Shown: piece after piece, positions 4,789-36,893 of the stretch
How the letters are laid out: the number at the start of each line of letters is the position of its first letter
How positions within the stretch are numbered: the stretch's first letter is position 1
DNA from: Planctomycetota bacterium
GTDB lineage: Bacteria > Planctomycetota > Phycisphaerae > Phycisphaerales > Phycisphaeraceae
Direction: 5' to 3'
Assembly: GCA_024279275.1 (NCBI GenBank)
Contig: JAJRRS010000128.1
Coordinates: 2,121-66,120, forward strand
Length of the DNA stretch: 64,000 nt
Program-made: the position numbers and the translations under genes
Notes under the pieces: model-generated
What the model was told of the DNA's origin: nothing
Seen by the model: only the letters and a program-made list of their open reading frames with translations
Databases searched by the model: none

Positions 4789-4936
4789 TGGGGTCTAGGG
4801 TCTGGGGTTCAGGGTCTGGCCGGAAGATGGGGTCCAGGGTCTAGTGAAGAACACCCGCTTCCTCTTCTTTTCTGGCTAGACCCCAGCCCCCAGACCCCAG
4901 ACCCAATCCCCCGGCCCCCAGACCCTAGACCCCCAA
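4789..4936. repeat. Module K: long imperfect hairpin built from GGGTCTRGGG units (left arm 4789-4845, right arm 4875-4936)
   Basis: TGGGGTCTAGGGTCTGGGGT pairs with CCCCCAGACCCTAGACCCCC. A related element with the same CGGAAG centre lies at 27950-28047. Confidence 0.8.
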
Positions 4937-5064: not shown

Positions 5065-6420
5065 ATGACAGCGACCACCCGACTCTTGACCGCCCTCGCA
5101 GCCTCAGCCATCACACTCGTAGGTTTCACCCCCACGCCCGTCTCCGCCGGCACCTTTGCGACCAACCAACACGAATTCATCCATCGACGCGCAGGCAAAA
5201 CGACTCCGGAAGCCCGCTCAGTCGGGAGTATCGTCGGAGGCTGGACAGAAACAGGGGGCTTTATTGCCCGAGGCTCGGGCGTATTGATCGGTGGTCGCTA
5301 TGTGCTCACCGCAGCCCACCTGGTCGACGACATGACCCCGGGGGCCACATTCACAATCAACGGCCAGAACTACGGCATGCAGCGATGGGTCGTGTCCAAC
5401 CGATTTTATAGCAGGGACCCAACAACCGGAAATCCCGACGCGAGAGCTTTTGGCGTCGGCGGCGACCTGGCCTTGGTTCAACTTGACCGCCGAGTGGTTG
5501 GTGCTCGCAATCTCAGAGCCAAGATGAATACCAGGCGAAATGAAGCCGGCAAGACCGCGACCATCGTCGGCTTCGGAAGGGGCGGCGATGGGGCCGTAGG
5601 GATCAACACCCCGGCCCCGGGTACAGGCGCACTCATACCCGATACCCCCGTCCCTAATGAAGCTGGTTTTGGCACAGACGATGCTGGGGTCTGGAACTTT
5701 CAGCCGGTCAAACGTGCTGGCAAAAACGTGGTCGAGGCGCACAGCCCCTTTGCACGCAGGACCAATCGCGAACTGGTGACCGACTTCGATGCGGCCCCCG
5801 ATCAACTCCCCGCACTTGCCGCGGCCGGTCTGCAGCCGCCCCAGTTTGACCCGTTCACCGGCACCTACAATATCGACGAGGACGATATCCCCATCAGCAA
5901 CGAGTTTGCACCGTCGGTGGGTGACAGCGGAGGCGGTCTGTTCATCAACGGCAAACTGGCCGGCATCACCTCCTGGACCACACGCGCAAACTCCGAGTTC
6001 TTCAGCCAAGCCAACTACACCCGCCTCTCACGTGGCGGATGGAGGTGGGCACGCGACAACATCAGGGCCTTCAACAACTTTCTGGCCAACCCCAACCCCG
6101 AACCTTGGAGGACCGTTGCCAAAGGCGGCAGCGGTTTCCGTGGTGTCGCAAAAATCTTTGCTGCAGCGGATGTAGGCGATGGGTCGGTGATTGCCCAAGG
6201 GGACACCATCAACATCTTCGGCCCCAGACTCTTTTTTGACGAGACGGGCGCAAAATTCACCGTTGAAATGGATGTAAGTAATCGCTTCATCTTTAACGAC
6301 CTCAATGCCGACCCCGCGCCTCTTTCCGATCTGATCGCAAATAACACCGTCCCCGAACCCGCCAGCCTCGCGCTACTAACCCTCGGCGGACTCACCCTCC
6401 TCCGACGCAAACGACGCTGA
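5065..6420 (+). CDS. Secreted trypsin-like (S1) serine protease with PEP-CTERM anchor
   Basis: Signal peptide, then triad contexts LTAAHL, GGDLALVQL and GDSGGGLF. The C-terminus is VPEPASLALLTLGGLTLLRRKRR. Confidence 0.85.
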   Translation: MTATTRLLTALAASAITLVGFTPTPVSAGTFATNQHEFIHRRAGKTTPEARSVGSIVGGWTETGGFIARGSGVLIGGRYVLTAAHLVDDMTPGATFTINGQNYGMQRWVVSNRFYSRDPTTGNPDARAFGVGGDLALVQLDRRVVGARNLRAKMNTRRNEAGKTATIVGFGRGGDGAVGINTPAPGTGALIPDTPVPNEAGFGTDDAGVWNFQPVKRAGKNVVEAHSPFARRTNRELVTDFDAAPDQLPALAAAGLQPPQFDPFTGTYNIDEDDIPISNEFAPSVGDSGGGLFINGKLAGITSWTTRANSEFFSQANYTRLSRGGWRWARDNIRAFNNFLANPNPEPWRTVAKGGSGFRGVAKIFAAADVGDGSVIAQGDTINIFGPRLFFDETGAKFTVEMDVSNRFIFNDLNADPAPLSDLIANNTVPEPASLALLTLGGLTLLRRKRR

Positions 6421-6672: not shown

Positions 6673-7401
6673 CTACCCCCGCTTCACAATCATCGCCAGC
6701 CCAAGCCCCATCAAAACCAGACTCGCCGGCTCAGGCACAAACGTCGTATTAATCGTCAACGCATCCTTGCTGATCGTCGCCATCCCCCCCACCGCCGCAC
6801 TGGCAATCAAGTTGTTATCCATCGCGACGATCACATACGTCGTCTGGATACCCAGGTCAGCCAGGTCGATCAACGCCGCACCCAGCCAAGAGCCACTACC
6901 CGGGCCGTCAACCGGGAACACCGCCGCAGGCGCGGGGATCCCACCCGGGCTGATGACCATGTGAATCGGCTCTGCAAGCGTAATGAATTGTTGTGTCAGA
7001 TCGTCAAAGTACCGCACCGTCAAAGCCCCAGCCGCCGACACGCTCCCGCCTCCAACAATATCGTAGACCCCAGACTCAAAGATCGACAGCGTCCCGATAA
7101 ACAGCCCCGGGGCCGCATCAAACGTAAACTCCAACGCACCCGCTGTCAGGTCGGAGCTGTTATCACTGGCGCTCGCGGTGAACGAAGGCATGGCAAACGT
7201 CATCACATTGCCCGCCCCCGCAGAAGGTGTGCCGTACATCGGCAACGGATCGGTGATCGAGGTCTCGACAATATTGTCATACACCCCATCCGCCACCACG
7301 ACCGCCCCGGGATGCGCCAGGCTCGCTGCCGAAGCACACACAGCCCCCCCAAGCAACGCAGCAGCAGCCATCACACACTGTCCAGACTTGAACCTCAGCA
7401 T
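6673..7401 (-). CDS. PEP-CTERM sorting-domain secreted protein, function unknown
   Basis: The ATG at 7401 follows a GGGAGAAAGGGAAAG RBS. There is a signal peptide, and the C-terminus is VPEPASLVLMGLGLAMIVKRG. Confidence 0.75.
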   Translation of the reverse strand: MLRFKSGQCVMAAAALLGGAVCASAASLAHPGAVVVADGVYDNIVETSITDPLPMYGTPSAGAGNVMTFAMPSFTASASDNSSDLTAGALEFTFDAAPGLFIGTLSIFESGVYDIVGGGSVSAAGALTVRYFDDLTQQFITLAEPIHMVISPGGIPAPAAVFPVDGPGSGSWLGAALIDLADLGIQTTYVIVAMDNNLIASAAVGGMATISKDALTINTTFVPEPASLVLMGLGLAMIVKRG

Positions 7402-7644
7402 CAATTCTTTCCCTTTCTCCCATCCGCCCCATCGAACCCTCAGCCCCGACCCCCAGCACCCACCGGCCAAACAAAACCGGTGCAGATGAAATCTATCCCA
7501 CGCCCATAGGGAAGCTACTTGACTGTCATTTTTGGATGTAAATTGCCCCGATCTAATCGTTACAGATGGACCGCCCAGGAAATAATCATTGACCCGGTCG
7601 CGTAATCAGGGGTATACAGGGTCAACCTTAGCGGAACCTATCCC

Positions 7645-8988
7645 ATGAGAAAGACCGACAAGCCGATCATTGCCCTCACCGCCGTACTGATCCTCATCCT
7701 CACCGCCGCCCTTCTCATCAAAGCCGCCCCCACCTCCACCCCCAACGCCGCCCCTGAGCAACGCGAAGGCTCGGATATCCCCTCCCCCACATCATCAATC
7801 ATAAATCAAAAATCAGAAATCTCCCCCCCCTCCACCACCCTCGCCCCCAACGCCGTCCGCGGCGTCAACTACGCCCACATCCACCGCAACAACAAAGGCT
7901 ACGGCTCGGACGCCTCCAAACGCGAACTCACCAACCTACAAAACCTCGGCATCGACTGGATCGCAATCACACCCTTCGGCTACCAAAGCTCCGCCGACCA
8001 AAACCAGATCGCAGGCTACGACCCCAACCAACCCCTCTCCGCGTTTACCACAACCCCTCCCCCGTTTAGCCCGGTCGCCCGCGACCGGTCCCCTTCCCCA
8101 CTTCATCAATCAGCACTCACACATCAAACCTCCCCCCGCCCCTCCTCCACATCAGCACTCAGCACTCACACCTCAGCACTCACCCCCCGCCCCGGCCAAG
8201 ACCGCTCACTCACCGACCGCCACCTCGCCGAGCAAGTCGCCGCCGCACACCGGCTCGGCGTCAAAGTCCTCATCAAGCCTCACATCTGGTCACGCGACTT
8301 CTGGAACGGCGACGCCTGGCACGGCACCATCGAACAAAACTCACCCAAAGACCACGAATCCTGGCGAAAATCCTACCTACGATTCATCCTGCACCACGCA
8401 CAACTCGCCCAAGACACAAACGCCGAAGCTCTATGCATCGGCACCGAACTCATCAGCCAGACCACCCACCACCCCGACGACTGGCTCACACTCATACGCG
8501 AAGTCAAAAAAATCTACTCTGGCAAACTCACCTACGCCGCACACTGGGATCAGGAGTTCCAGGCCATCACCTTCTGGGACCAACTCGACGCCATCGGCAT
8601 CAGCGCCTACTTCCCACTGGATGCACCCGACAACGCAACCGTCAAACAACTCGTCGATGCCTGGCAACCTCACAAAAAACGGATCGAAGCGGCACACACC
8701 CTCTACAACAAGCCCGTCGTCTTCCTGGAAATAGGCTACCGCCCCGCCACAGGCACCTACCGCCAACCCTGGCTCGACCGCGGCGGCCAACCCGATCCCA
8801 TCGCACAGGCACGCGCCTACGAAGCCCTCTTCCAAACCTACGCCGACGAACCCTGGTGGCACGGCCTGTTCATCTGGAAAGTCTTCACCGACGCCCAAAG
8901 AAGCGATCACCACGGTACCGGCCCCGGCTACTCCTTCAGAAACCAACCCGCCGAGCAAGTCATCCAACAATGGTTCCGCCAACCCTGA
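7645..8988 (+). CDS. Membrane-anchored TIM-barrel glycoside-hydrolase-like protein (clan GH-A / GH113-like) carrying in-frame repeat insertions
   Basis: N-terminal TM helix, then GVNYAHIH..GYGS, WIAITPFGYQ, VLIKPHIW, CIGTELI, LTYAAHWDQE and FLEIGY motifs. The family assignment is by recollection only. Confidence 0.6.
   Translation: MRKTDKPIIALTAVLILILTAALLIKAAPTSTPNAAPEQREGSDIPSPTSSIINQKSEISPPSTTLAPNAVRGVNYAHIHRNNKGYGSDASKRELTNLQNLGIDWIAITPFGYQSSADQNQIAGYDPNQPLSAFTTTPPPFSPVARDRSPSPLHQSALTHQTSPRPSSTSALSTHTSALTPRPGQDRSLTDRHLAEQVAAAHRLGVKVLIKPHIWSRDFWNGDAWHGTIEQNSPKDHESWRKSYLRFILHHAQLAQDTNAEALCIGTELISQTTHHPDDWLTLIREVKKIYSGKLTYAAHWDQEFQAITFWDQLDAIGISAYFPLDAPDNATVKQLVDAWQPHKKRIEAAHTLYNKPVVFLEIGYRPATGTYRQPWLDRGGQPDPIAQARAYEALFQTYADEPWWHGLFIWKVFTDAQRSDHHGTGPGYSFRNQPAEQVIQQWFRQP
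7744..7821 (+). repeat. Module A variant (7744-7782) plus heptad module D (7788-7821) inside the CDS
   Basis: AACGCCGCCCCTGAGCAACGCGAAGGCTCGGATATCCCC and CACATCATCAATCATAAATCAAAAATCAGAAATC translate in frame as NAAPEQREGSDIPSPTSSIINQKSEI. Confidence 0.85.
8051..8200 (+). repeat. Module C REP (8064-8088) plus D-type heptads (8098-8192) inside the CDS
   Basis: GTTTAGCCCGGTCGCCCGCGACCGG followed by CAGCACT heptads translates in frame as PFSPVARDRSPSPLHQSALTHQTSPRPSSTSALSTHTSALTP. Confidence 0.85.
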
Positions 8989-9398
8989 TACGCACCCCCA
9001 ACCACCCATCATCCAACACAATATCAATCCCCCCCCCAACGCCGCCCCTGATCGCAGCAAAGCGGCGGGTATCCCCACCCTCCTCAGAACCCTCCCCCGT
9101 TTAGCCCGGTCGCCCGCGACCGGCTCCCCCCTCCCCCACGAAGCGCCGCGACTTGTCGCGCTCCCCCATCCCCACCCCACGCACCCACTCCACGCTTGCG
9201 GTTTAGCGCCCCTCTTCACCCCAGCACGCAAACCCCTCCCCCTCCCCACATCATCAATCAGCAACCGCAGGTCCGCGAAGCGAAATCACAATTCATACAT
9301 CTCCCCCCACCCCCTCCTCACCTCAGCAATCAGCACTCACACCTCAGACCTCCCCCACTTGGCCCAACCCCCCTCCCCCCGCTAGACTGATACACACC
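8989..9398 (+). repeat. Mosaic repeat cluster: A 9038-9076, C 9099-9123, B 9137-9160, an extra GTTTAGC at 9201, D-type heptads 9246-9350
   Basis: Each module matches copies in the 13.1, 15.0-15.8 and 16.8-17.7 kb clusters. Confidence 0.85.
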
Positions 9399-9471
9399 GG
9401 CCCTGTAGCCCAATGGCAGAGGCACGCGACTTAAAATCGCGCCAGTGTGGGTTCGAGTCCCACCAGGGCCA
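9399..9471 (+). tRNA. tRNA, 73 nt, class I cloverleaf, anticodon UAA by manual fold (isotype uncertain)
   Basis: Acceptor GGCCCTG/CAGGGCC, D arm GCC..GGC with GG in the loop, anticodon stem CGCGA/TCGCG with loop CTTAAAA, 5-nt variable region, T arm GTGGG-TTCGAGT-CCCAC, discriminator A. CCA is not encoded. Confidence 0.75.
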
Positions 9472-9580
9472 TTCACCTCCTTATGCCAATCCCGAACAGA
9501 ACTCGTACGTCAGCGGAATCCCCTCCCCGAACCGTTCACCGATATCCGCCAACCTCCGATATCCGTCAACCCAGGCCCGA

Positions 9581-9621
9581 CGTTTAGCGGCGGATCGCAG
9601 ATCCACGCGTTGGCCTAACGG
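9581..9621 (+). repeat. REP-like module J, second copy
   Basis: CGTTTAGCGGCGGATCGCAGATCCACGCGTTGGCCTAACGG, compared with 1347-1388. Confidence 0.85.
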
Positions 9622-9890
9622 GACAATCGCCCCCCCCCACATAACGTGTGTCCGGGGGCAACCGCAAAAGATTTAACGGGATTGGCATTAAAGCCTTGTC
9701 GATTCAAGACGCACCCATCAGACGTCCGATAATGTTTGCTCGCGGCAGGCTTGCCTATCTTCACACCCCAAGAACTTTGCCAAATAATATTTTCACTCAT
9801 ATCTTAATTGATAACAAGTGGTTATATGACTTTTGCACGCCCAACAACCCCTTCTTTCCCATCATGGGGGGTGTAATTTCAGAGAAAGGG

Positions 9891-9898
9891 TGTATAAT
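9891..9898 (+). promoter_or_regulatory. Candidate extended -10 promoter element TGTATAAT
   Basis: A perfect TGnTATAAT lies 70 nt upstream of the ATG at 9969, in an AT-rich stretch. No clear -35 element is present. Confidence 0.25.
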
Positions 9899-9968
9899 TC
9901 ACCTGTTGTAAAAGGAGGGGACTTCGCATCCGTAAACTCTATTAGCGTGGAGTGAAGGAGAAGTCCTG

Positions 9969-10859
9969 ATGACTGGTCAAATTAGTGCCCCACGGTCGCG
10001 CAATAGCTGCGTCCGTACCCTGTCGCTCACTGCGGCAATTCTCACAACCGGATTCTTAACGGCCAACGCCGCGCAAGCGGATGTCTATGGCTTTGAGTGG
10101 GATCGCCCCGCCGTATTCGACGGCAATGCCGGGCCTATCTATGTCAGTGATGAAGCAGGTGTCATCACCAGTATCACCACCCAATACAACTCTGACACCC
10201 AGAGCCTCTCCTTCGTCGCCGCCTTCGAGCCAGAACCCGGCACGGGCCAACTCCCCGTCGGCTTCTTCCTCGTTCTCAACAACGGCCCGATGCCCATCGG
10301 CATGGACGGCGAGTTCGCCATCCTGTACTTCGATGCCATCACCGGCGCCGCACCCACCGTCACCGCCTACGCCTACAACGGCGAAAACGGTGCAGACTCC
10401 TTCTTCGACGGGGCCGCAGCACCCGGCAACCAGGCTCCCGACCCCATCGTCTCATCGATCAACGACCCCTCCTTTGTTACCGCCGCCTCCAGCGTCGATG
10501 GCCCAGGCGGACGCGTCCTCTCCTTCACCATCGACACCACCGCCATCAACGCACACAACCCGCTCTACGGCAACGCCGTAGACTGGCAAGGCATCGGCTT
10601 CGATGAAAACATCGGCGTCTGGTTCCACCCCTACTCGAACTTGAACCCAGCCTACGGCCAAGACGGCTTCCTCCTACCCGACCCCTCCGGCGCAAGCTGG
10701 CTCACCTGGGGCCAATACCCCGACCAGGGCGAACAGTTCCACGGCTGGCTCGACGCGACCAACCAGCAATCCAACGTACTCATCCCTGAACCCGCCAGCC
10801 TCACCCTGATCGGCCTGGGCGCCATCGCACTCACAACCAGAGGCCGTCGCAACGCATAA
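9969..10859 (+). CDS. PEP-CTERM sorting-domain secreted protein, function unknown
   Basis: Signal peptide (LTAAILTTGFLTANAAQA). The C-terminus is IPEPASLTLIGLGAIALTTRGRRNA. Confidence 0.75.
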   Translation: MTGQISAPRSRNSCVRTLSLTAAILTTGFLTANAAQADVYGFEWDRPAVFDGNAGPIYVSDEAGVITSITTQYNSDTQSLSFVAAFEPEPGTGQLPVGFFLVLNNGPMPIGMDGEFAILYFDAITGAAPTVTAYAYNGENGADSFFDGAAAPGNQAPDPIVSSINDPSFVTAASSVDGPGGRVLSFTIDTTAINAHNPLYGNAVDWQGIGFDENIGVWFHPYSNLNPAYGQDGFLLPDPSGASWLTWGQYPDQGEQFHGWLDATNQQSNVLIPEPASLTLIGLGAIALTTRGRRNA

Positions 10860-11070
10860 ACAACAACACCCCCGGCACAGGCCGATTCATCGGCCGCCTC
10901 CTGCCGCTCGCGGCTTCGCGTAGTCCAGAACCACACGCAACAAAGGGATTCTTGAACACCCGCCAACATAGATAATTTTCCGATCTGCTAGTTTCGATCG
11001 GTGTAGTTTGCTAGGGATCTGGACAGGCTTATCCTCCCAGGTAGGTCCGACCAGATGCCCAACCCACAAA

Positions 11071-11109
11071 CGTTTCGGGTGTGTTGCACAGCCACCCGAA
11101 GCGTTTTTT
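11071..11109 (+). terminator. Rho-independent terminator with no adjacent plus-strand CDS
   Basis: CGTTTCGGGTG-(11-nt loop)-CACCCGAAGCG forms an 11-bp stem, followed by TTTTTT. The nearest plus-strand stop is 210 nt upstream. Confidence 0.65.
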
Positions 11110-11158
11110 CATGCGCCCATCAACCACGAGTGCCGTGTAATTTAACCGTGCGAGTTAT

Positions 11159-11183
11159 GTTTAGCCGCCGCGGCCACGCGGCG
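11159..11183 (+). repeat. REP-like module L: GTTTAGC + hairpin CGCCGCG-GCCA-CGCGGCG
   Basis: A reverse-complement copy lies at 56240-56264. Confidence 0.8.
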
Positions 11184-11261
11184 TATTCGATGCACTAAAC
11201 TGACCACCCGAACCATTAATGCATCGTTGCGAACGATAGTGAATCAGCTCAATCTCCCCTT

Positions 11262-11293
11262 AACAAAAAAAAGCGACCCATCAAGGATCGCTT
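11262..11293 (-). terminator. Rho-independent terminator of tRNA-Ala
   Basis: The minus strand reads AGCGATCC-TTGAT-GGGTCGCT followed by TTTTTTTT. Confidence 0.65.
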
Positions 11294-11327
11294 TTCGTTG
11301 TTTTATGGGTCCAAAACCCGTATTAAG

Positions 11328-11400
11328 TGGAGCTGACAGGGATCGAACCTGCGACCTTCTGTATGCCATACAGACGCTCTCCCAACTGAGCTACAGCCCC
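11328..11400 (-). tRNA. tRNA-Ala (anticodon GGC)
   Basis: The reverse complement is GGGGCTGTAGCTCAGTTGGGAGAGCGTCTGTATGGCATACAGAAGGTCGCAGGTTCGATCCCTGTCAGCTCCA. It has the G3:U70 Ala identity pair and anticodon loop ATGGCAT. Confidence 0.92.
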
Positions 11401-11574
11401 ATAGTGTCCCTCCCGGCGCGGGAAGTATAAGCCCCACAGCCCCCCGCAGCAACCCGATCCCCCCCGCCTCCAGCGACCCAGAAGCCTCCAATACCGTCAT
11501 CTATCGACCAGATCACCCTATTACACAACCACCCCGGATGTGCTATCATTTAATGCTCGGCTGAATCTGTCCTC

Positions 11575-12339
11575 ATGGAGACCCGCGTGTCGCTTCAAGA
11601 AAAGCTGTACGACTTATTTCTGCTGGATCAACAGGTGCGAGGTCTAAGGACCCGCCTCGATGCAGCCACCCGCAGGCTCACCCTACAAGACAAGAAACTA
11701 GGCCAACTCCGCCAGCAACAAGCAGAGCTGGCCGACCAGTTCAAGCACGCCCAGGCCGAAGTCTCCACGCTCGAGCACCAGTCCAACGACGCCGAAGAAC
11801 GTGTCACCAAGCTGCGCGAGCAGATGAACAGCGTCCGCAACAACAAAGAATACTCAGCCATGCTCGTCGAGGTGAACACCCTCAAGGACGAAAAAAGCAA
11901 GCTCGAAGACCAGGCCCTTGCAAAGATGTCCACCTCAGACGACCTCAAACAACGACTCGAAGACGTCAAGACCCAGGCCGACACCCAGGCCAAGCTCGTT
12001 GAATCCGCCAAAACCGAGGTCATAAACGCCAAGAACGAAGTCGGCGTCCAACTCAACGACGCCACCGAAAAACGTGAAGCAGCCGCCTCACTCATCCCCG
12101 CCGACATCCTCGCCACCTTCGAACGACTCGCCGACCACTACGACGGCGAAACCATGGGCCAAATCGAAGAGCAGGACAGACGACGCCGTGAATACACCTG
12201 CAACGGCTGCTATATGGAACTACCCATCGAACGCGTTAACGCCGTTATGGTCAAGCCCGACACTTTAGTCACCTGCCCAAGCTGCAACCGCTTCCTGTAT
12301 ATCAAGCAGGAACTCAAAGCCGAGATCGGCGCAAAATAA
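11575..12339 (+). CDS. Coiled-coil protein with C-terminal C4 zinc ribbon (COG1579/DUF164-like)
   Basis: Long heptad-rich region, then CNGCYMELP...CPSCNRFLY. Confidence 0.75.
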   Translation: METRVSLQEKLYDLFLLDQQVRGLRTRLDAATRRLTLQDKKLGQLRQQQAELADQFKHAQAEVSTLEHQSNDAEERVTKLREQMNSVRNNKEYSAMLVEVNTLKDEKSKLEDQALAKMSTSDDLKQRLEDVKTQADTQAKLVESAKTEVINAKNEVGVQLNDATEKREAAASLIPADILATFERLADHYDGETMGQIEEQDRRRREYTCNGCYMELPIERVNAVMVKPDTLVTCPSCNRFLYIKQELKAEIGAK

Positions 12340-12417
12340 CCACCCACGGGCTGACCTCGTCCCTACGACTCGGCAACCCACACAACCTTCAACCATAATA
12401 TCCGGGAAAATATCACC

Positions 12418-13131
12418 TTGAAACTCACGATCCACTTCGATGGCGGCTCGCGAGGCAACCCAGGCCCAGCATCCGCTGGCGTCGTTATCATCGCATCAGA
12501 CACCGGCAAACCCCTACACGAAGCCGGCTACTTCCTGGGCAAATGCACCAACAACGTCGCCGAATACCAGGGCCTCCTCCACTCCCTCGAACAAGCCAAG
12601 ACTCTCAAAGGCACCTCCCTCGATATCTACAGCGACTCCCAGCTCCTCGTCCGCCAGATCACCGGCCAATACCGCGTCAAATCCCCAGACCTAAAGCCAC
12701 TCTACCAGGAAGCCATCAAACGCCTCCACACATTCGACGACTGGAAAATCCAGCACATCCTCCGCGATAAAAACCAACGGGCCGATGAATTAGCCAACCT
12801 CGCCATGGACCACAAAGCCGACATCACCGCCGACACCCCACCCGCAACCTCCACTCCCAACTCAAGCCTCACCCCTCACCCCTCAACCCTCTCCACCACC
12901 CCCTGCTGGTCCGCCAAACTCACCGGCAAAGACGGCAAATGCATCGCCGGCTGCTCCACACGCAACGAATACACCTTCGGCCCAACCACCCCCGACGGCT
13001 TCTGCGTACACGCCACCCAAGCCATGCTCAACGACGGCCCACTCCAATGGAACCCCAAAAAACGCTCCGGAACCTCCCGCTGCCCAGCCTGCAACCTCAA
13101 CATTCAGATCAACATCATCCACCGCGGATAA
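12418..13131 (+). CDS. RNase HI-family domain fused to a Cys-rich C-terminal domain (TIGR04076-like)
   Basis: TTG start. IHFDGGSRGNPGPASAGVVI, NNVAEYQGLLHSLE, IYSDSQLLVRQ and NQRADELAN are RNase H motifs. The C-terminal region has CIAGCS...TPDGFCVHA...CPAC. Confidence 0.8.
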   Translation: MKLTIHFDGGSRGNPGPASAGVVIIASDTGKPLHEAGYFLGKCTNNVAEYQGLLHSLEQAKTLKGTSLDIYSDSQLLVRQITGQYRVKSPDLKPLYQEAIKRLHTFDDWKIQHILRDKNQRADELANLAMDHKADITADTPPATSTPNSSLTPHPSTLSTTPCWSAKLTGKDGKCIAGCSTRNEYTFGPTTPDGFCVHATQAMLNDGPLQWNPKKRSGTSRCPACNLNIQINIIHRG

Positions 13132-13474
13132 GCCCCCATCCCCCCTCAACCTCATCACCAACTCCCAACGCCGCCCCCTGAGCGCAGCGAAGGGGCGGAT
13201 CTCGCCTCCAAAACACTCTCTCCTGACCTTCCCCCACGAAGCGCCGCGACTTGTCGCGTCCCCTCTCCCCCATTTAGCCCGGTCGCTCGCGACCGGCTCC
13301 CCTCCCCACATCATAAATCGGGGCCTCTGAATAACCTCGGCGGAGGCTGATTTAGCAGCCGTGATTGCACGGAATCACACTCACTGAAGGGTTATTCAGA
13401 GATCCCAATCATCAATCACACATCATAAATCCCCCTCCTCCCCCCTCAAATACACATCGCTTTTAGCCGAACCT
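13132..13474 (+). repeat. Mosaic repeat cluster: A 13167-13202, B 13235-13258, C variant 13272-13296, D 13305-13320 and 13405-13435, unique 12-bp inverted repeat 13325-13336/13389-13400
   Basis: Module matches to the other clusters. The inverted-repeat arms are CTCTGAATAACC and GGTTATTCAGAG. Confidence 0.8.
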
Positions 13475-13513
13475 GTGATTACAATAGAGCTTAGCCCCAC
13501 CCAAGGATCTGCC

Positions 13514-13903
13514 ATGCTTATCCGTAAACCCAGCGACACCCAATCCCGAGTCATGGACATGCCCGGCGCATCAGGCGTCACCATGAAACTCATGGTCGGC
13601 TCAGACGACGGCGCACCCAACTTCGCCATGCGCATCTTCGAGGTTCAGCCCGGCGGACACACCCCTCGCCACCAGCACAACTACGAACACGAAATCATCA
13701 TCCTCGAAGGCCACGCCCACGTCGGCACCAGCGATGACGAATCCCAAGATACCACCGCCCAAGCCGGCGACGTCCTCTTCATCCCCGCCAACCAGACCCA
13801 CCAGTTCCGCAACACCAGCCAAAACGTCCTGAAGTTCATGTGCATGGTCCCCACCGAATTTGACTGCGCCGGCTCCACCGAACCTACTCCCGGCTCGTTC
13901 TAA
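13514..13903 (+). CDS. Cupin domain protein
   Basis: GGHTPRHQHNYEHEIIILEG and GDVLFIPANQTHQFRN, the two cupin motifs. The ATG at 13514 follows an AAGGA RBS. Confidence 0.8.
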   Translation: MLIRKPSDTQSRVMDMPGASGVTMKLMVGSDDGAPNFAMRIFEVQPGGHTPRHQHNYEHEIIILEGHAHVGTSDDESQDTTAQAGDVLFIPANQTHQFRNTSQNVLKFMCMVPTEFDCAGSTEPTPGSF

Positions 13904-14005
13904 TCGCCGATGAATATATTACCCACCAGCTTTGACGCATCCGACCGCGACAACGACAAGTAGCCCTCAACCCGGTTTTGTTTCTTTTTCGATAAGGGTC
14001 AACAC

Positions 14006-15037
14006 ATGCCCAATCAGCCCGCCAAACGCCGTAACTTCTTCGCCACATCCGACGGCATCTTCGTCGCATCTGCACTCCTGATGACCGCCTCCGCTGTCGT
14101 CGCGCTCACCGCCTCCGTCGTACTCGCCAAGGTCACCTTCCAGGACCACGCCACCGAACTACTCTCACAATACGCCGCCTACATCTTCAGCATCCTCCTC
14201 GCCATGGCCAGCCTCTTCGCTCTCATCGCCGGCGCAGTCCGCTGCGGGGTCTACGGCCGAGCCGGCGCACCCGCCCCCCAATCCGCCAACGACTCCGGCG
14301 ACGTCCTCACACAACTACAGATCATCTCCGACCGCATGCTCCTAAGCGACACCGCCAAACGCATCGCATACCGCCAGGAAGACGTCAACGCACTCCGCGA
14401 AGCCATCGCCGACGACATCAAACGCAAAGACTTCGACGCCGCTCTCGTCCTCGTTCAGGAAATGAGCCAGACCTTCGGCTACCGCGAGGAGTCCGAAGAA
14501 TTCCGCGAACAAATCATGGCCGCACGCAGCACCGTCATCGATGCACGCCTCACCGTCCTCCTCCAACGCCTCGACCAGATCATCGCCGCACACGACTTCC
14601 CACAAGCACTCTCAGACGCCCTGAAAATCATGCGGATCTACCCCGACCAGGTCCGCGTCCAAAACCTCGACCAGATCGTCAACCAAGCCCAGGAAACCTA
14701 CAAACACCAGATCGAACGCGACTTCCTCGCCGCCGCTCAGAAAGACGACGTCGACGGCGCTATCGCACTGCTCACAGAACTCGACGCCTTCCTCACCGAA
14801 CGCGAAGCAGAACCCTTCCGCGAAGTCGCAAGAGGCGTCATCGGCAAAAAACGCGACAACCTCGGCGTACAATTCAAGATGGCCGTCCACGACAAGGAAT
14901 GGCTCAAGTCCATCCGCGTCGGCGAACAAATCATCAAAGAATTCCCCAACACACGCATGGCCGAAGAAGTACGCGAACGCCTGGACCAACTCCGCGAACG
15001 CGCCGCCGGCCAACAAGCCGCCCAACAAGCCCGCTAA
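14006..15037 (+). CDS. Hypothetical membrane-anchored helical protein
   Basis: Two N-terminal hydrophobic helices and a long helical C-terminal region. Codon usage is consistent with the neighbours. No family recognised. Confidence 0.6.
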   Translation: MPNQPAKRRNFFATSDGIFVASALLMTASAVVALTASVVLAKVTFQDHATELLSQYAAYIFSILLAMASLFALIAGAVRCGVYGRAGAPAPQSANDSGDVLTQLQIISDRMLLSDTAKRIAYRQEDVNALREAIADDIKRKDFDAALVLVQEMSQTFGYREESEEFREQIMAARSTVIDARLTVLLQRLDQIIAAHDFPQALSDALKIMRIYPDQVRVQNLDQIVNQAQETYKHQIERDFLAAAQKDDVDGAIALLTELDAFLTEREAEPFREVARGVIGKKRDNLGVQFKMAVHDKEWLKSIRVGEQIIKEFPNTRMAEEVRERLDQLRERAAGQQAAQQAR

Positions 15038-15773
15038 CCCCATCTTCACCTGACACCACCACCCCAAAGCCGCAGGCTGCGAAGCTGCCGCGGATCTCCC
15101 CACGTTTCTCCCTCACCATCTCCCCCCTCCTAACGCCGCCCCTGAGCGCAGCGAAGATGCGGGTATCCCCCCACCACCAAAATACTGACCTTCCCCACGA
15201 AACGCCGCAACGTGTCGCGTCCCCCCTCCCCCGTTTAGCCCGGTCGCCCGCGACCGGCTCCCCTCCTCACATCATCAATCATAAATCAACAACCATAGGC
15301 CACCGAAGCTAAATCATAAATCCCCCTCCCCCACGAAACGCCGCGCCCCGGCACGCCTTTCCCTATTCCAAATCTGCGTCATCTGCGCAATCTGCGGACA
15401 CCTCCCCCTCCCCTCTTCACATCAGCAATCATAAATCACAATTCATACCTCCCCCTCCCCACATCAGCACTCAGCAATCACACATCAGCACTCCCCCCCC
15501 ACCCCCAACGCCGCCCCTGAGCGCAGCGAAGGGACGGGTATCCCCCCACCCCCGTTTACCTCAATCACTCACGCCCTGCCACGCCTTTCCCTATTCCAAA
15601 TCTGCGTCATCTGCGCAATCTGCGGACACATCCCCTCCCCACATCAGCAATCATAAATCACAATTCATACCTCCCCTCCCCCTCCTCACCTCAGCACTCA
15701 GCAACCGCAACTCCGCAAAGCGATATCTTCTCTCCACCGTGCAACTCCCTCCCACATCGCTACACTGTCCGCC
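15038..15773 (+). repeat. Largest mosaic repeat array: A 15132-15170 and 15507-15546, B 15196-15219 and partial 15332-15345, C 15233-15257, E 15351-15401 and 15580-15629, many D heptads
   Basis: A 735-bp gene-free interval composed almost entirely of modules separated by C-rich CCCCTCCCC linkers. It contains an internal ~100-bp duplication (15352-15454 vs 15580-15675). Confidence 0.9.
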
Positions 15774-16802
15774 ATGCCCACAACCCACCAAGCCGTCTTG
15801 ATACCCGGCGACGGCATCGGCCCCGCCGTCTCCGCCGCCGTTCTCAAAATACTCAAAGCCGCCGACGCTCCCGTCGCCTTCCACCAGCACCACGCCGGCA
15901 TCGCCGCCCTTGCAGACTCCGGCGAAGTCCTACCCCAGTCCACCATCGACGCCGTCCGTGAGCACCACGTCGCACTCAAAGGCCCATGCACCACGCCCGT
16001 CGGCAAAGGCTTCTCCTCCGTCAACGTCCAACTACGCAAAAAACTCGACCTCTACGCCGCCATCCGACCCGTCCGCAGCCTCCCAGGCGTCCCCACCCGC
16101 TACACAGACGTAGACCTCGTCATCTTCCGTGAAAATACCGAAGGCCTCTACTCCGGCATCGAAAACGAAATCACCGACGGCGTCGTCACCAGCCTCAAAA
16201 TCGCCACCCGAACCGCCTGCACTCGCATCGCTCAGCGGGCTTTCGAGTACGCCAAAAAACGTGACCGTAAAAAAGTCACCGTCTTCCACAAAGCCAACAT
16301 CCTCAAACTCAGCGACGGCCTCTTCCTCGACTGCGTCGAAAAAGTACACGACGAACAGTTCCCCGACATCCCCTACGAAACCCAAATCATCGACGCCGGC
16401 TGCATGAAGCTCGTACAGGACCCCACCCAGTTCGACCTCCTACTAATGGAAAACCTCTACGGCGACGTCATCTCTGACCTCACCGCAGGACTCGTCGGCG
16501 GCCTCGGCGTCGTCCCCGGATCTAACATCGGAGAGACCGACGCCGTCTTCGAAGCAGTCCACGGCAGCGCACCAGACATCGCAGGCAAAGGCATCGCAAA
16601 CCCCCTCGCCCTACTCATGTCCGCCGTCATGATGCTCAACCACCTCGCCGAATCACGCAAAGATGACCGCTGCCTCACCGCCGCCAACGCCATCAAAAAT
16701 GCCTACAACAAAGCTCTTGAGGACAACCAAAAAACCGGCGACCTCGGCGGCAACCTCAACACCGACCAATTCGCCAACGCCGTCATCCAACGACTCACCT
16801 AA
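15774..16802 (+). CDS. Isocitrate/isopropylmalate dehydrogenase family protein (NAD-dependent IDH-like)
   Basis: LIPGDGIGPAV, NVQLRKKLDLYAAIRP, FRENTEGLYSG, NLYGDVISDL and HGSAPDIAGKGIANP motifs. Confidence 0.9.
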   Translation: MPTTHQAVLIPGDGIGPAVSAAVLKILKAADAPVAFHQHHAGIAALADSGEVLPQSTIDAVREHHVALKGPCTTPVGKGFSSVNVQLRKKLDLYAAIRPVRSLPGVPTRYTDVDLVIFRENTEGLYSGIENEITDGVVTSLKIATRTACTRIAQRAFEYAKKRDRKKVTVFHKANILKLSDGLFLDCVEKVHDEQFPDIPYETQIIDAGCMKLVQDPTQFDLLLMENLYGDVISDLTAGLVGGLGVVPGSNIGETDAVFEAVHGSAPDIAGKGIANPLALLMSAVMMLNHLAESRKDDRCLTAANAIKNAYNKALEDNQKTGDLGGNLNTDQFANAVIQRLT

Positions 16803-16825
16803 CCCCCCCCAGTTTGCCCCTCCCC

Positions 16826-17647
16826 AACGCCGCCCCTGAGCGCAGCGAAGGGACGGGTATCCCCCACCCCTCCCCGTTTAGCCCGGTCGCCCGCGACCGG
16901 CTCTTCCACTCCCCCCTGCGACCGGCTCTAACCCTCTAAACCCGCGACAAACCCCCATCGCTGCCGCCGCAACCCCTGCCTCACCGGATTACCTTCGACA
17001 TACTTCACACACTGCCCCACACGCTCAGACGTATCCAGATAAACAATCCACCCACCCATCGCCCAAGGTGTCGGCACCCGACCGTGACGATCAACACACC
17101 CCGCCAGCGGGCGAACACCCTCAGCACTCATCCGCCTTGTGCCTGCACTTTTTAACCGCTGCGATATCTCTTCCCCGTCGAGCCTGTGCCGAGCAACCAC
17201 CATATGCACATGGTCCGGCATGATTGCACACGCATACACATTCAACCCTGTCTGCTCAATTACCTGCCCAAACCCACGCCCCACCGCCCGCGCCTGAACG
17301 CCCGTTAACCGTACCGGCGGGTACTTCAACACCCCTTGCATCTCGCGCCGTCGGCCACGGTCGTAATTTTGATGTGCCACCGATCGCGTCGTCTCAACCT
17401 TCGTCGCCATACCAAACCGTTGAAGATGTCTCGCCCAAACCCTCGTTGACCACGAACCCCGCGACTCATTGGGAAGCCAAAACCCATAGGTAGACCAGAT
17501 GATATGGGAAGCGATAGCCATCAGGATTCCACCGTATCAAAGATACTGGTCGCGGGCGACCGGGCAAACACAAGACGACACTCCCTCCCCCCATTTAGCC
17601 CGGTCGCCGCCTCCCCCTCCCCGTTTAGCCCGGTCGCCCGCGACCGG
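16826..17647. mobile_element. REPtron-like unit: RAYT-type transposase gene bracketed by module C REPs
   Basis: Module A lies at 16826-16865 and module C at 16876-16900. A partial C at 16918-16928 overlaps the transposase stop. A partial C lies at 17593-17608 and a full C at 17623-17647. Confidence 0.7.
16928..17521 (-). CDS. HUH/Y1 transposase of IS200/IS605 TnpA type, REP-associated tyrosine transposase (RAYT)-like
   Basis: HUH motif PDHVHMVVA and catalytic Tyr context VKYVEGNPVRQGL. It is 197 aa, has no partner tnpB and is flanked by REPs. Confidence 0.8.
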   Translation of the reverse strand: MAIASHIIWSTYGFWLPNESRGSWSTRVWARHLQRFGMATKVETTRSVAHQNYDRGRRREMQGVLKYPPVRLTGVQARAVGRGFGQVIEQTGLNVYACAIMPDHVHMVVARHRLDGEEISQRLKSAGTRRMSAEGVRPLAGCVDRHGRVPTPWAMGGWIVYLDTSERVGQCVKYVEGNPVRQGLRRQRWGFVAGLEG

Positions 17648-17725
17648 CTCTTATCTTTCTCACCGCCGCCTGGGACACCCTTCCCTCACCTCAGCAATCA
17701 GCACTCACACATCAGACCTCACCCC
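17593..17725 (+). repeat. Partial C, full C (17623-17647) and D heptads (17686-17725)
   Basis: The D module supplies the last four codons and the stop of the minus-strand CDS 17712..18329. Confidence 0.8.
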
Positions 17726-18329
17726 CACCCTCCAACCGCCGCATCATCCCACCCATCTGCTCCTTGAACCGCTGATGCTCCGCAGGATCGGTTTCACGTT
17801 GATGGGTCAGACGCCGCGACCCGTCGGCCAGGTAGTTCATCCGATGGGCCGTGTCGATCAGACGCTGATAATTCCGCACGATCGCCTCCTCTGCCCACAG
17901 CCGCGCGAACGGCGGAGTGTTCACATCGTGCGCCAGTCGCACCAGCCGTTGGATCGACGCCAAAATCAACCGCTGAAACTCGCCAAGCAACTCATCACCC
18001 AACGCCAGGTCAGGCGTCAATGCGTGGTCCTTACGGATGGCCGACCGGTCACGGCGGACAGTCCGCACACTGATCTTCATCAACTCCGCAATCTCCGTCG
18101 TCGAGAACCCCTCATGCGTCAGGTGATCCACACAACGCTGCCTCGTTTCCATCGGCAACTCTTTCGGCGAAACCCGCCCCGCATGTATCTGCTGCACCAA
18201 CGCCGTGACCGCCTCCCTGTCCGCCTCCGCCTTATCCCCAGCCCCTCCGGCCGAGGCGCATCGAGCCTCAACCTCCCCCACAACTTGTTCTGGATCGCCA
18301 GCCACAACAGAATCGGATGTCTGAAGCAC
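17712..18329 (-). CDS. Helix-turn-helix protein (sigma-70 region 4 / resolvase-type HTH-like), function unknown
   Basis: GFSTTEIAELMKISVRTVRRDRSAI. The remainder is helical and I do not recognise it. Confidence 0.55.
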   Translation of the reverse strand: MLQTSDSVVAGDPEQVVGEVEARCASAGGAGDKAEADREAVTALVQQIHAGRVSPKELPMETRQRCVDHLTHEGFSTTEIAELMKISVRTVRRDRSAIRKDHALTPDLALGDELLGEFQRLILASIQRLVRLAHDVNTPPFARLWAEEAIVRNYQRLIDTAHRMNYLADGSRRLTHQRETDPAEHQRFKEQMGGMMRRLEGGGEV

Positions 18330-19509: not shown

Positions 19510-20970
19510 TTACCGCTTGATCGTCCCCAGATCAACCACCACCCCGCCGGGCTGATAATAGTCCACCCCCAACGTATCACGATCCAGAAACGTAAACACC
19601 ACCGCACTCGCCCGCAGCCGCTCCACGAATCCCAGATCCCCCGCACCAGGCCCCGCATACGAAGCATTATTAAACTGCTGTGCATGGAAATGATAATGAG
19701 CAAGCCCCGTATACATCCGTCGGATCAGCGCGTCAGACGAATAAAACTTCAGATCATGCAAACGAATCTCCGGCGGATACGCCAATGCAACAACCCGTCC
19801 ACCCTCACCAACCAACACCCCCCCATGCTCCGATGTCCTGTCAACCAAATCCCGATCCGCCTGCATGAACAACCCCGCCACCAACGCACGATCCGCCAAC
19901 GCATCAAGCAAGAGTTCGATCGTCATCAGGTCAGCGAAACACAACGACTCAGCATGGTCCGCCAAGGATTCCGAGGGCAACCCCAACGCAGCCCCCACCT
20001 CGGTACGAACCGTCCCCTGCCCAGGACCAATCAACCCTGCAACACGCGACAACAGCATGCCCTTACTCAACCCCGGGTCCGAAATACCAGCCATCATGAC
20101 CGTCGGCAGATGCCGCAGCTCAAGCCCCTCCCGCTGCTTGTCCGTCAACCGCCCAGCCGACCGCTGGGCACGCTCCCAATATGCCCCACCCGACTGGCTA
20201 CGTACCTGCATCAACCAAAGCACCGCCTCGCGATTCACCGGCAAAACGCTCAACCAACGCGCCGCCTTAAGATCAAGAATCACCGGCTCCCGCGAATCCA
20301 TCCCCAACAACAACCCCCGCGCCTGATCAGCACCCACCAGCCGATGCATCAAAACCCACGCATCCACTCGCGCCGCCGTCGTAACCGTTTCATCGTCACT
20401 GACGAACACCTCCCACACCGCCTGCTCAACCGTTACCCCCGGGTTCAGCGCCTCGATCGCCGCACGTTCCGGGGGAACCGGGGGAACCGGGGGAACCGGG
20501 GGAGCCGGGGGAGCCGGGGGAGCCGGGGGTTGATCGTCTGTGTAAAATCGCGATTGTTGTGCGTAGCTGCGCACCAGCGCCACCGTGAAACCCGGGTCGC
20601 CATGCTCCACCGCACGATCTATCAAGAGCTTTCGCACCGCCAAGAGATCAACCTCTCGAAGGTGTTCCCGCGCAGCAGCCCAAAACGCATCCTGATCGTA
20701 TTCAATCAGCCGATCCATCGACCACAACCGCAACGCCGTCGGCTGAGCATCCGACCACAGCACACGGTACATCACCGCCACCGCACGCCGAGCATCGGGC
20801 AGGTCAGACAGATTGCCTAATTGCTTCGCCGCCGCCAGACGCCGGCCCGGGTCTCTATCACGATCGAGCATCACCGCCAGCGGATCGGCCACGGGCGTCG
20901 GCCCACAACCCGACAGGGAGGCTAACAATGCTATTGAAACCACCAACCACCCGACAACTTGCTTCATCAC
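19510..20970 (-). CDS. Lipoprotein with a diverged JAB/MPN (JAMM)-like C-terminal domain
   Basis: MMKQVVGWLVVSIALLASLSGC lipobox. The C-terminus has SEHGGVLVG ... HYHFHAQQFNNAS...GAGD, which resembles but does not exactly match E..HxHx7Sx2D. Confidence 0.55.
   Translation of the reverse strand: MMKQVVGWLVVSIALLASLSGCGPTPVADPLAVMLDRDRDPGRRLAAAKQLGNLSDLPDARRAVAVMYRVLWSDAQPTALRLWSMDRLIEYDQDAFWAAAREHLREVDLLAVRKLLIDRAVEHGDPGFTVALVRSYAQQSRFYTDDQPPAPPAPPAPPVPPVPPVPPERAAIEALNPGVTVEQAVWEVFVSDDETVTTAARVDAWVLMHRLVGADQARGLLLGMDSREPVILDLKAARWLSVLPVNREAVLWLMQVRSQSGGAYWERAQRSAGRLTDKQREGLELRHLPTVMMAGISDPGLSKGMLLSRVAGLIGPGQGTVRTEVGAALGLPSESLADHAESLCFADLMTIELLLDALADRALVAGLFMQADRDLVDRTSEHGGVLVGEGGRVVALAYPPEIRLHDLKFYSSDALIRRMYTGLAHYHFHAQQFNNASYAGPGAGDLGFVERLRASAVVFTFLDRDTLGVDYYQPGGVVVDLGTIKR
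20469..20529 (+). repeat. 9-bp tandem repeat: CCGGGGGAA x3 then CCGGGGGAG x3 (+ partial), inside the CDS
   Basis: It encodes PPAPPAPPAPPVPPVPPVPP on the minus strand. The DNA unit is the same as at 41382-41413. Confidence 0.9.
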
Positions 20971-27949: not shown

Positions 27950-28047
27950 TTGGGTCTGGGGTATAGGGTATAGGGTCTGGTCGGAAGGGAAACAAAAATC
28001 TGATCGGTATAAGGTCTTATCTGGTTAGACCCAAGACCCTAGCCCCC
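27950..28047. repeat. Module K-like hairpin element in the accB-accC spacer
   Basis: GGGTCTGGGGTATAGGGTATAGGGTCTGGTCGGAAGG ... CCAAGACCCTAGCCCCC, compared with 4789-4936. Confidence 0.7.
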
Positions 28048-31820: not shown

Positions 31821-31860
31821 AGTTCTCTTACTAAAGACTAATGGCTAAAGGCTAACTTCT

Positions 31861-34326: not shown

Positions 34327-34386
34327 AAGATATACTTAGCCTGCCACACCGACCGATACCCGACACCCGAACCCCGATACCCGATC

Positions 34387-36651: not shown

Positions 36652-36810
36652 CTACCAGGAAAACCACAATATAGATCGTATGCAAAGGCCTACAAAAGTA
36701 GCCCAACAATTATCTCAAGACCCCATCTCACCAATCCCGCTCCCGCTTGGTGCAAACACCACTCTCCCGCCGTGTCCACCGTTCGTGGGGAAGGTCACAT
36801 CGCTCGACAT

Positions 36811-36893
36811 TCCGAATCTGTGTAATCTGCGCAATCTGCGGACACGCCCCTCCCCCGCTTTCTCCGTGTCTCTGTGACTCCGTGCGCTCCGTG
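36811..36893 (+). repeat. Module E (36811-36845) followed by module G (36862-36893)
   Basis: Matches 52-127 and the E copies at 15.3-15.6 kb. Confidence 0.85.

Follow-up and report, generated by a model that had tools for sequence, protein, structure and literature searches.

Copies of intergenic repeat modules in frame within a predicted GH113 glycoside hydrolase gene of a planctomycete

A predicted GH113 gene and its two blocks of repeat modules

We have analysed a 64-kb stretch of DNA (64,000 nucleotides, hereafter the window) from a metagenome-assembled genome (MAG) of a planctomycete of the Phycisphaeraceae, in which the gene for a predicted glycoside hydrolase of family GH113 carries copies of short, otherwise non-coding repeat modules (Table 1). 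An earlier reading of this DNA from its letters alone (the sequence-only reading) had proposed that four modules, elsewhere intergenic, sit in frame inside the gene and are read through without stops. In fact, profile and repeat-family searches of the whole window find that the genic modules are real and that every remaining copy lies between long open reading frames (ORFs), while the frame of the gene runs through its own modules with no stop at all. The coordinates first proposed fall within 1-10 nt of the profile positions, the outer ends of the last block deviating most, and both peptides then quoted are correctly translated. By sequence comparison, a real GH113 gene has thus taken up intergenic repeat modules without loss of its frame.

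Judged by profile, predicted fold and two predicted catalytic glutamates, the protein is a member of the GH113 family. It has 1024 homologs, the nearest being Phycisphaerales-type metagenome proteins of ~60-72% identity, and an alignment of the window protein with 19 of them (20 sequences) has 98 invariant positions, including the catalytic Glu268 and Glu362. The AlphaFold2 model built from this alignment (mean predicted local distance difference test score, pLDDT, 76; predicted template modelling score, pTM, 0.73) is laid out as an N-terminal helix at residues 6-24 (membrane or signal), a low-confidence linker at 26-58 and then a well-modelled (beta/alpha)8 barrel, itself broken by a second low-confidence stretch at 142-180. 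The best Foldseek matches of the model are the GH113 beta-mannanases 5yli, 7dv7 and 3civ (E ~1e-21 to 1e-19, TM scores of 0.79-0.84 normalised to the target). Because the catalytic glutamates are invariant, the ratio of nonsynonymous to synonymous substitutions (dN/dS) of the core is low (0.06-0.30 against five orthologs) and the window branch is no longer than others in a neighbour-joining protein tree, the gene looks functional.

Two blocks of modules lie within this gene. In block 1 a hairpin module, A, is followed by a unit of module D, a heptad array that Tandem Repeats Finder (TRF) recovers with period 7 at 7791-7821 (4.4 copies). The genic A is 83% identical to the intergenic reference copy and its hairpin is partly decayed, with an RNA folding energy of -8.0 kcal/mol vs -14.1 for the intergenic copy at 16824. 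Block 2 contains module C, a hairpin of the repetitive extragenic palindrome (REP) type, followed by two D units. The 26-nt core of C, CGTTTAGCCCGGTCGCCCGCGACCGG, is found at 8063-8088 in the gene and again at 9098, 13271, 15232, 16875 and 17622, always on the plus strand of the window, and the genic copy is identical to four intergenic copies over 26/26 positions; 100 dinucleotide-preserving shuffles gave 0 matches to the core. The genic C would fold into a 7-bp GC stem (8071-8077 with 8082-8088) closed by a 4-nt loop, at -12.5 kcal/mol and a z-score of -2.4. Behind it, TRF reports a period-7 array at 8152-8182 and, over 8090-8193, a 49-nt period of 2.1 copies with 81% matches; the second D unit of the block and its linker plausibly arose in situ by a 49-nt tandem duplication of the preceding unit.

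The model indicates where the blocks lie in the protein. The sequence-only reading had block 2 interrupt the TIM-barrel region. It does lie inside the barrel domain, but in the loop between beta2 (105-114) and alpha2 (191-203), no core strand being touched. There it takes the place of a short variable stretch, its borders being approximate as the flanks are C-rich; across homologs the loop measures 0 to ~20 residues. As to whether the inserts map to surface loops, the predicted structure places both blocks in non-core segments that are modelled as disordered: residues 26-58 and 142-180 lie outside secondary-structure elements with pLDDT <50 (in the second stretch, at 142-149 and 152-180).

Are the blocks insertions? 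Block 2 (~residues 138-183) is missing in 19/19 aligned homologs. Its site is empty at the DNA level in the syntenic ortholog L001, as well as in L072 and L074 (loci of other genomes carry L numbers, homologous proteins P numbers): L001 reads TTC ACC TCC CCC AAC..., and the window reads TTT ACC followed by the C-rich leader, C, D and D. In its present form, block 2 is seen in the window genome only, as far as these comparisons reach. The idea that both inserts are lineage-specific therefore stands for block 2 and fails for block 1 (~residues 34-60), since the L001 ortholog carries A and D at the same position. Moreover, the genic A copies of the window and L001 share the same departures from the intergenic consensus (GAGCAACGCGAAGGCTCGGATATC), so that block 1 is older and would predate the split from the L001 lineage. 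That two lineages have inherited block 1 speaks in itself for the persistence of the insert-bearing gene under selection. L001 also has a syntenic A-C-D cluster downstream of the gene, before the tRNA gene. Most orthologs carry no insert at all, among them L072, L074 and 15 others.

Two other origins were considered. Convergent low complexity, as might arise from Pro/Ser-rich linkers in a C-rich genome, is rejected in view of the 26/26 match of C, the 0 matches in shuffles and the significant E-values of A and D. The opposite route, in which the intergenic modules derive from the gene, is rejected as well: C occurs phylum-wide, whereas the insert is unique among the homologs examined.

The surroundings of the gene offer observations of their own. 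Its neighbours (5065-6420; 6673-7470, minus strand; 9969-10859) encode secreted PEP-CTERM-anchored proteins, including a trypsin-like protease, and this neighbourhood is kept in L001 and L072 and partly in L077, which points to exopolysaccharide or the cell surface as the setting of the enzyme. The ~170 nt before the start codon (7470-7644) are conserved in all six loci (window, L001, L072, L074, L076 and L077), even where synonymous sites are saturated, with the conserved blocks TGAAATCTA, TGTCAT, CGTTACAGAYGGA and GGCAATAAT. Rfam gives no match to this upstream region, which could be a promoter/operator common to the divergent gene pair, or a leader RNA. Over the whole window strand asymmetry is extreme and GC skew is tied to the direction of transcription, from -0.3 to -0.4 at plus-strand genes and mildly positive at minus-strand genes.

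Table 1. Features of the window and, in the last three lines, of two orthologous loci. E-values of modules come from nhmmer, with profiles made of copies from the window, those in the gene among them; peptides are given in the frame of the gene.
Feature	Position	Strand	Remarks
GH113 family glycoside hydrolase coding sequence (predicted)	7645-8988	+	447 aa; Pfam PF22612 GH113, E 4.7e-51
Module A, genic	7742-7782	+	E 1.6e-10; REP-like hairpin with 5' tail CCAACGCC; translated PNAAPEQREGSDIP
D heptad unit after A	7789-7823	+	E 4.7e-5; ATCANNA-type period-7 array; translated TSSIINQKSEI
Insertion block 2	8051-8193	+	~46 codons, ~residues 138-183: C-rich leader, REP C, linker, D, linker, D
Module C (REP), genic	8061-8088	+	E 2.9e-8; TTTAGCC tail; translated FSPVARDR
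D heptad unit	8100-8133	+	E 2.4e-5; repeat families D2, D6, D10; translated within LHQSALTHQTS
D heptad unit	8149-8182	+	E 2.1e-5; translated TSALSTHTSALT
Predicted catalytic Glu268	8446-8448	+	invariant in alignment
Predicted catalytic Glu362	8728-8730	+	invariant in alignment
Intergenic mosaic A-C-B-D-D	9036-9353	+	between GH113 stop codon and tRNA gene (9399-9471)
Intergenic mosaic A-B-C-...-D	13165-13433	+	
Largest intergenic mosaic, A-B-C-D-E-D-D-A-E-D-D	15130-15715	+	
A-C pair	16824-16901	+	just past stop-codon end (16928) of RAYT-like gene
RAYT-like Y1 (HUH) transposase gene	16928-17521	-	197 aa; HVH motif, YVEGNPV tyrosine motif
Module group	17546-17721	mixed	past start-codon end (17521) of RAYT-like gene
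Inverted C copy	17546-17567	-	
Partial C	17590-17608		
Full C	17620-17648		
D unit	17688-17721		
Distant intergenic E copies	36810-36845 and 37528-37562	+	
Distant intergenic B copy	37499-37526	+	
Decayed C, N-terminal linker	L076 2050-2077		reads GTTAGCCCGGCTGCTAGCGACCGG
Decayed C, beta2-alpha2 loop	L076 2344-2368		reads TTTAGCCCGGACGCTGGCGACCGG
Decayed C, beta2-alpha2 loop	L077		reads TTCAGCCCGGTCGGCGACGATCGG

The mosaic repeats and a transposase-like gene

Five intergenic clusters of modules lie between 9 and 18 kb, their modules separated by CCCCTCCCC-type linkers, and four of the five open with A, 21-92 nt past a stop codon. In the longer clusters the order recurs: A comes first, then B and C, then D, with E present in the largest and C preceding B in the cluster next to the GH113 gene. 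C and D adjoin each other at 15230-15301, at 17620-17721 and in L022. All modules of the window are on the plus strand except for one C copy next to the transposase-like gene described below. The genic repeats had been taken for several unrelated modules; we find instead one ordered mosaic of a single orientation, from which the gene holds two blocks, A-D and C-D-D.

Module A is an 8-bp hairpin with a conserved tail and a conserved loop. Seventeen copies were compared, drawn from the window, from L001 and from contigs of marine metagenomes; pairing extends to 92% of their cells, and one pair runs through UG, CG, GC and AU; the covariation score was reached by 3 of 500 shuffles and reflects this single covarying pair, so that its support for the stem is modest. 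Module B holds a smaller palindrome, and modules D (heptad arrays) and E (nonamer arrays) are non-palindromic. Searched against Rfam, the whole window at the gathering threshold and positions 7000-18000 at E up to 1 yielded two tRNAs only and no family for any module.

Module C is widespread. The window has six full and two partial copies, all but one intergenic, and a 24-nt core of C recurs in exact copies in 70 loci of many Planctomycetota MAGs, whose hosts include Phycisphaerae, Tepidisphaeraceae, Thermoguttaceae and Planctomycetaceae. Most of the C copies among these 70 loci lie just outside gene ends, and inverted pairs 40-70 nt apart are frequent, being found in L005, L020, L045, L048, L057 and L065. 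No such inverted pair of C (a REPIN) occurs within the GH113 gene. Directly 5' of the stem stands TTTAG, which comes close to the unpaired GTAG or CGTC tag of REPs without matching it, and GTAG is found on the B-like repeats of other genomes. The range of the 24-nt core across planctomycete classes is unusually broad for a REP family.

A likely partner of C lies close by. Between the C copies at 16873 (plus) and 17546 (minus), a minus-strand gene encodes a protein resembling REP-associated tyrosine transposases (RAYTs), which matches Pfam Y1_Tnp (E 4.3e-5, 24.1 bits vs a cut-off of 23) and, weakly, the ISDra2 TnpA structure 2xm3. Homologs of 42% identity in L005 (4215-4799) and L013 (2535-3104) are flanked by C in the same way. 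The protein would be a distant member of the RAYT family at best. By its hairpin, its many copies and the RAYT-like genes that it flanks, module C is a REP with a cognate, if divergent, RAYT-like transposase, and by analogy with other systems this protein is a candidate mobiliser of C.

The GH113 gene is the one colonised gene of the window, and a second one is found in other genomes. A gene for an EamA/DMT-like membrane protein, at L042 1438-2391 (plus strand) and with a minus-strand ortholog in L068, carries C in antisense, in frame, in a central loop, where it is translated PVASDRAK (...SAGG PVASDRAK RVGSW...). Its homologs include EamA-domain proteins, and between L042 and L068 the ratio of nonsynonymous to synonymous polymorphism (pN/pS) is 0.19 in the coding frame vs 0.5-2.5 in the five other frames. 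The ortholog P0122 (L094 1501-2415), ~80% identical, lacks the insert, leaving a gap of 14 residues against L042 and 17 against L068; the inserted DNA, made up of leader, tail and hairpin, has a length of 42 nt in L042, as against 51 nt in L068. On these alignments the gene is a second clean filled/empty case of in-frame C insertion. A further candidate, a 533-codon open frame at L043 4983-6581 (plus strand), would contain the C-derived peptides VSPVARDRSP and FSPVARDRSP and has a coding-like codon-position composition (C at third positions, C3, 0.78; GC at second positions, GC2, 0.54). The L043 frame has no Pfam match. Pfam searches of three candidate REP-containing ORFs of other genomes gave no matches; one of the three was then validated through pN/pS and homologs, and another through codon-position composition only.

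The EamA-like pair also bears on the C-rich leaders. A relative devoid of modules, L072, has ordinary intergenic DNA without C-rich linkers at the syntenic places; because of this, and because of the filled and empty EamA-like sites, the leaders are best seen as part of the modules and not as their target. That C-rich linkers pre-existed as an insertion target is unsupported, L072 being without them and the EamA-like pair showing the leader arrive with the REP.

Other tandem arrays abound in the window. Intergenic heptad arrays stand at 4791-4935, 12861-12902, 27959-27976, 31831-31855 and 34353-34385, and others in L090, L092 and L093, with units such as GGGTCTA/AGACCCC, CTCAACC, GGGTATA, CTAAAGG and CCGATAC; in contigs of marine metagenomes, similar arrays adjoin copies of module A. 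It seems that heptad arrays are common in the lineage as a whole, recalling the STRR repeats of cyanobacteria. Near-perfect nonamer arrays of CCGGGGGAA or GGGGGAACC occur at 20469-20529 and 41382-41413, the first of them in frame within a minus-strand coding sequence (19510-20970), where it encodes PPAPPAPPAPPVPPVPPVPP, another repeat-built proline linker. Finally, a D-flanked segment with a small hairpin (...AACCGCAGGTCCGCGAAGCGAAATC...) lies just upstream of the tRNA gene in the window (9244-9300), in L001 (4202-4260) and in L076 (3280-3340); it is thus kept in three syntenic genomes, one of which has no A or C module there.

Origin and fate of the inserts

To explain these results, we propose that short non-coding repeats form a mosaic family in the lineage, consisting of the REP-type hairpins A, B and C, each behind a C-rich leader, and of the D heptad and E nonamer arrays, all of which would accumulate in one orientation just downstream of genes. 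Module C, at least, would be mobilised by the RAYT-like Y1 transposase as a unit of leader, tail and hairpin, and D units would either arrive together with C or expand in place by slippage, as the 49-nt duplication suggests. At least two landings would have struck the GH113 gene: an A-D block in the linker behind the N-terminal anchor helix, before the split from L001, and a C-D(-D) block in the variable beta2-alpha2 loop, in this form in this genome only.

Several properties could have let the gene survive these landings. The lengths of the inserts are multiples of three. The modules are also stop-free in two of three sense frames: as read from the sequence, C and A each have stops in one sense frame only (closed phases GTT TAG and CCC TGA), and in block 2 frames 0 and +1 stay open across the core of C and for at least 50 codons on either side. 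The C-rich sequence suits the extreme C-ending codon usage of the host; with 64% C and 10% G at third codon positions of the GH113 coding sequence, C-rich repeats pass for everyday codons of Pro, Ser, Thr and His. Lastly, the segments hit are modelled as disordered and are variable in length anyway. The inserts would then be translated as Pro/Ser/Thr/His-rich loops while the enzyme stays under purifying selection. Given the in-frame length, the stop-poor modules, the codon fit and the disordered, variable sites, we think that the inserts are probably tolerated passengers and not functional additions.

Several points weigh against this account. The mobility of C is drawn by analogy from other REP/RAYT systems; the best NCBIfam match of the RAYT-like protein, REP_Tyr_transpos (NF047646), has an E-value of 8.2e-12 and 45.2 bits, below the 80-bit cut-off; and translation of the inserts is read from their conservation. 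To these come the recurrence of C at the same sites, the conservation of the genic A, the position of block 2 on the barrel and its occurrence in a single assembly, each of which is taken up here with the reading that it favours.

The recurrence concerns two further orthologs. Among the best 120 homologs, module-derived peptides occur in only four proteins: P0001, which is identical to the window protein, P0002 (L001), P0006 (L076) and P0013 (L077). The DNA of P0006 and P0013 has decayed C copies at the same two sites, which have thus been struck, or have kept their copies, more than once; for random neutral insertion this would be unexpected. These copies no longer pair as hairpins, whereas the loop C of the window is a perfect consensus; those in the loop begin at a conserved Phe codon, 15 nt upstream of the window copy, and are without D units. 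L076 and L077 are sisters (bootstrap 99%; the rest of the backbone of the protein tree stays below 60%) and their GH113 genes differ by dN 0.093 and dS 0.71, the latter confounded as a dating measure by their shared C3 bias. The linker thus holds A in the window and L001, and C in L076 and L077, while the loop holds C in the window as well as in L076 and L077. On any tree this distribution calls for at least one repeated insertion or one precise loss. An independent insertion of loop C in the window lineage is favoured, and an old copy refreshed by gene conversion may also account for it. It seems doubtful to us that the two disordered sites serve REP-type modules as places of recurrent landing or retention. 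If they did, insertion could be targeted to sense-strand C-rich tracts of proline codons by a phylum-wide REP-RAYT system, or selection could act on the REP loops or hairpins, and in either case Planctomycetota would regularly gain new coding sequence from a domesticated transposase system.

Could the inserts be retained for a function? They might serve as nucleic acid (binding of the RAYT or gyrase, pausing, mRNA stability) or as peptide (a spacer or surface loop), and recurrence at two sites would then reflect selection or site-specific targeting. The hint of constraint comes from the genic A, of which 38/39 nt and 13/13 third positions are identical between the window and L001, against 63-75% in the adjoining linker segments and ~80% in the gene core; the syntenic intergenic copy of A is less conserved. 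The genic A is in fact as conserved as the best-conserved core segments of the gene. It is no clear outlier, however, for three further 39-nt stretches of the gene reach 37-38/39. The perfect consensus hairpin of the genic C and the U-G pairs of the A stem, which would suit an RNA or single-strand role on this strand, also favour a function, but the weakened hairpin of the genic A and the lost pairing of C in L076 and L077 speak against a conserved structural role. Three orthologs do have C-derived sequence in the same loop, and two have it in the N-terminal linker; yet most orthologs (L072, L074 and the 15 others) do without an insert, and both sites vary naturally in length, so that tolerance alone can explain the recurrence. 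A retained function is therefore unlikely in our eyes.

We find it very unlikely that the gene is a recent pseudogene, its barrel wrecked by block 2 too lately for stops to appear in C-rich, stop-poor sequence. Block 2 could indeed be recent, as no other genome has it and as its copy of C is undiverged. By standard TIM-barrel topology, the beta2-alpha2 loop would lie on the catalytic face, so that the insert may affect activity, and the dN/dS against L001 (0.30) is the highest of the five comparisons. The frame is nevertheless kept, along with all 98 invariant residues and both catalytic glutamates among them, the loop is a hotspot of insertions and deletions, and the branch leading to the window protein is not lengthened. 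Moreover, L076 and L077 have kept C-derived loop codons through a long divergence in a gene that stayed conserved.

We find it scarcely credible that block 2 arose as an artefact of assembly, through the mis-joining of a MAG contig at repeats (a classic cause of misassembly). The block does come from a single MAG assembly, with P0001 a single-member protein, no exact match to its 5' junction sequence in public metagenome contigs and no entry for the exact protein in the contig index, but both flanks continue the same gene and frame with conserved residues, which a chimera would not restore, and independent assemblies have like inserts: L001 has A-D, L076 and L077 have remnants of C, and two MAGs have C in their EamA-like gene.

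Comparison with known repeat systems

The GH113 gene is a clean comparative example of non-coding repeats turned protein sequence, in which syntenic filled and empty sites can be set beside a predicted structure. Through it the phenomenon comes to include Planctomycetota and mosaic modules in which REP hairpins are combined with heptad arrays, and the gene indicates what may make such insertions survivable: stop-poor repeats, a match to the codon bias of the host and landing in a disordered loop. It is also a warning for annotation, as an ORF with REP-like sequence inside it need be neither a pseudogene nor a wrongly called gene. That REP C is widely conserved across planctomycete classes, together with the RAYT-like gene, may be of interest for studies of REPIN-RAYT persistence.

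The inserts had been likened to Rickettsia palindromic elements (RPEs). An RPE is a single element of roughly 100-150 bp. The likeness holds for the behaviour: in both cases, small non-autonomous repeats are found between genes and in frame within seemingly functional genes, and the inserted peptides fall in tolerant regions, modelled here as disordered. It does not extend to the element itself, as C is a REP with a RAYT-like transposase of its own. The two are probably unrelated in sequence, and size and architecture set them apart, since ours are mosaics of a 25-40 nt REP hairpin with heptad arrays; the host is a free-living planctomycete and not an intracellular alphaproteobacterium, and only two or three colonised genes are documented.

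In-frame palindromic repeats are classic for RPEs (Ogata et al. 2000, as cited in PMC3733652 and PMC3184786). Intragenic REPs of the GTAG/CGTC type and MITEs (miniature transposable elements with inverted repeats) have been catalogued in several phyla outside Rickettsia, and for one planctomycete, R. baltica, REP families and multiple tyrosine transposases have been on record before (PMC3733652, PMC3184786). The GTAG/CGTC REP-RAYT systems (Di Nocera et al. 2013, PMC3733652; PMC3116915, PMC5581495) resemble module C in many ways: the hairpin is short and GC-rich and has an unpaired 5' tail, most copies lie downstream of genes and share their orientation, some form inverted doublets, a RAYT gene is flanked by REPs, and some copies stand wholly within ORFs. 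They differ in that the tail is TTAG here, not GTAG, that one 24-nt core spans several planctomycete classes, that the REP comes with a C-rich leader and is part of ordered mosaics of one orientation that also contain non-palindromic heptads, and that one gene carries two module types.

The bacterial interspersed mosaic elements (BIMEs) of E. coli (PMC2817692) are likewise clusters of a few repeat motifs with conserved linkers and a stereotyped order. Their REPs alternate in orientation, however, whereas ours keep a single one; BIMEs are extragenic, and their motifs have no sequence relation to ours. Cyanobacteria, too, are known to have small repeats fused to reading frames of the chromosome, in the form of Nezha and the MITEs of Anabaena (PMC3184786). 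Unlike with MITEs, neither terminal inverted repeats nor target-site duplications were observed here. Cyanobacteria reportedly also have the STRR heptanucleotide repeats, said to have been described by Mazel et al. in 1990. Module D resembles them as a tandem period-7 array in intergenic DNA, but its heptad sequence differs and its units are short (4-5 heptads), bordered by C-rich linkers on both sides and linked to a REP.

The kind of event that we describe is thus already known. What is noteworthy in the planctomycete gene is that REP-plus-heptad blocks take part in it, that one gene has received two module types, that decayed and fresh copies stand at the same loops of orthologs, and that a REP core is conserved across planctomycete classes.

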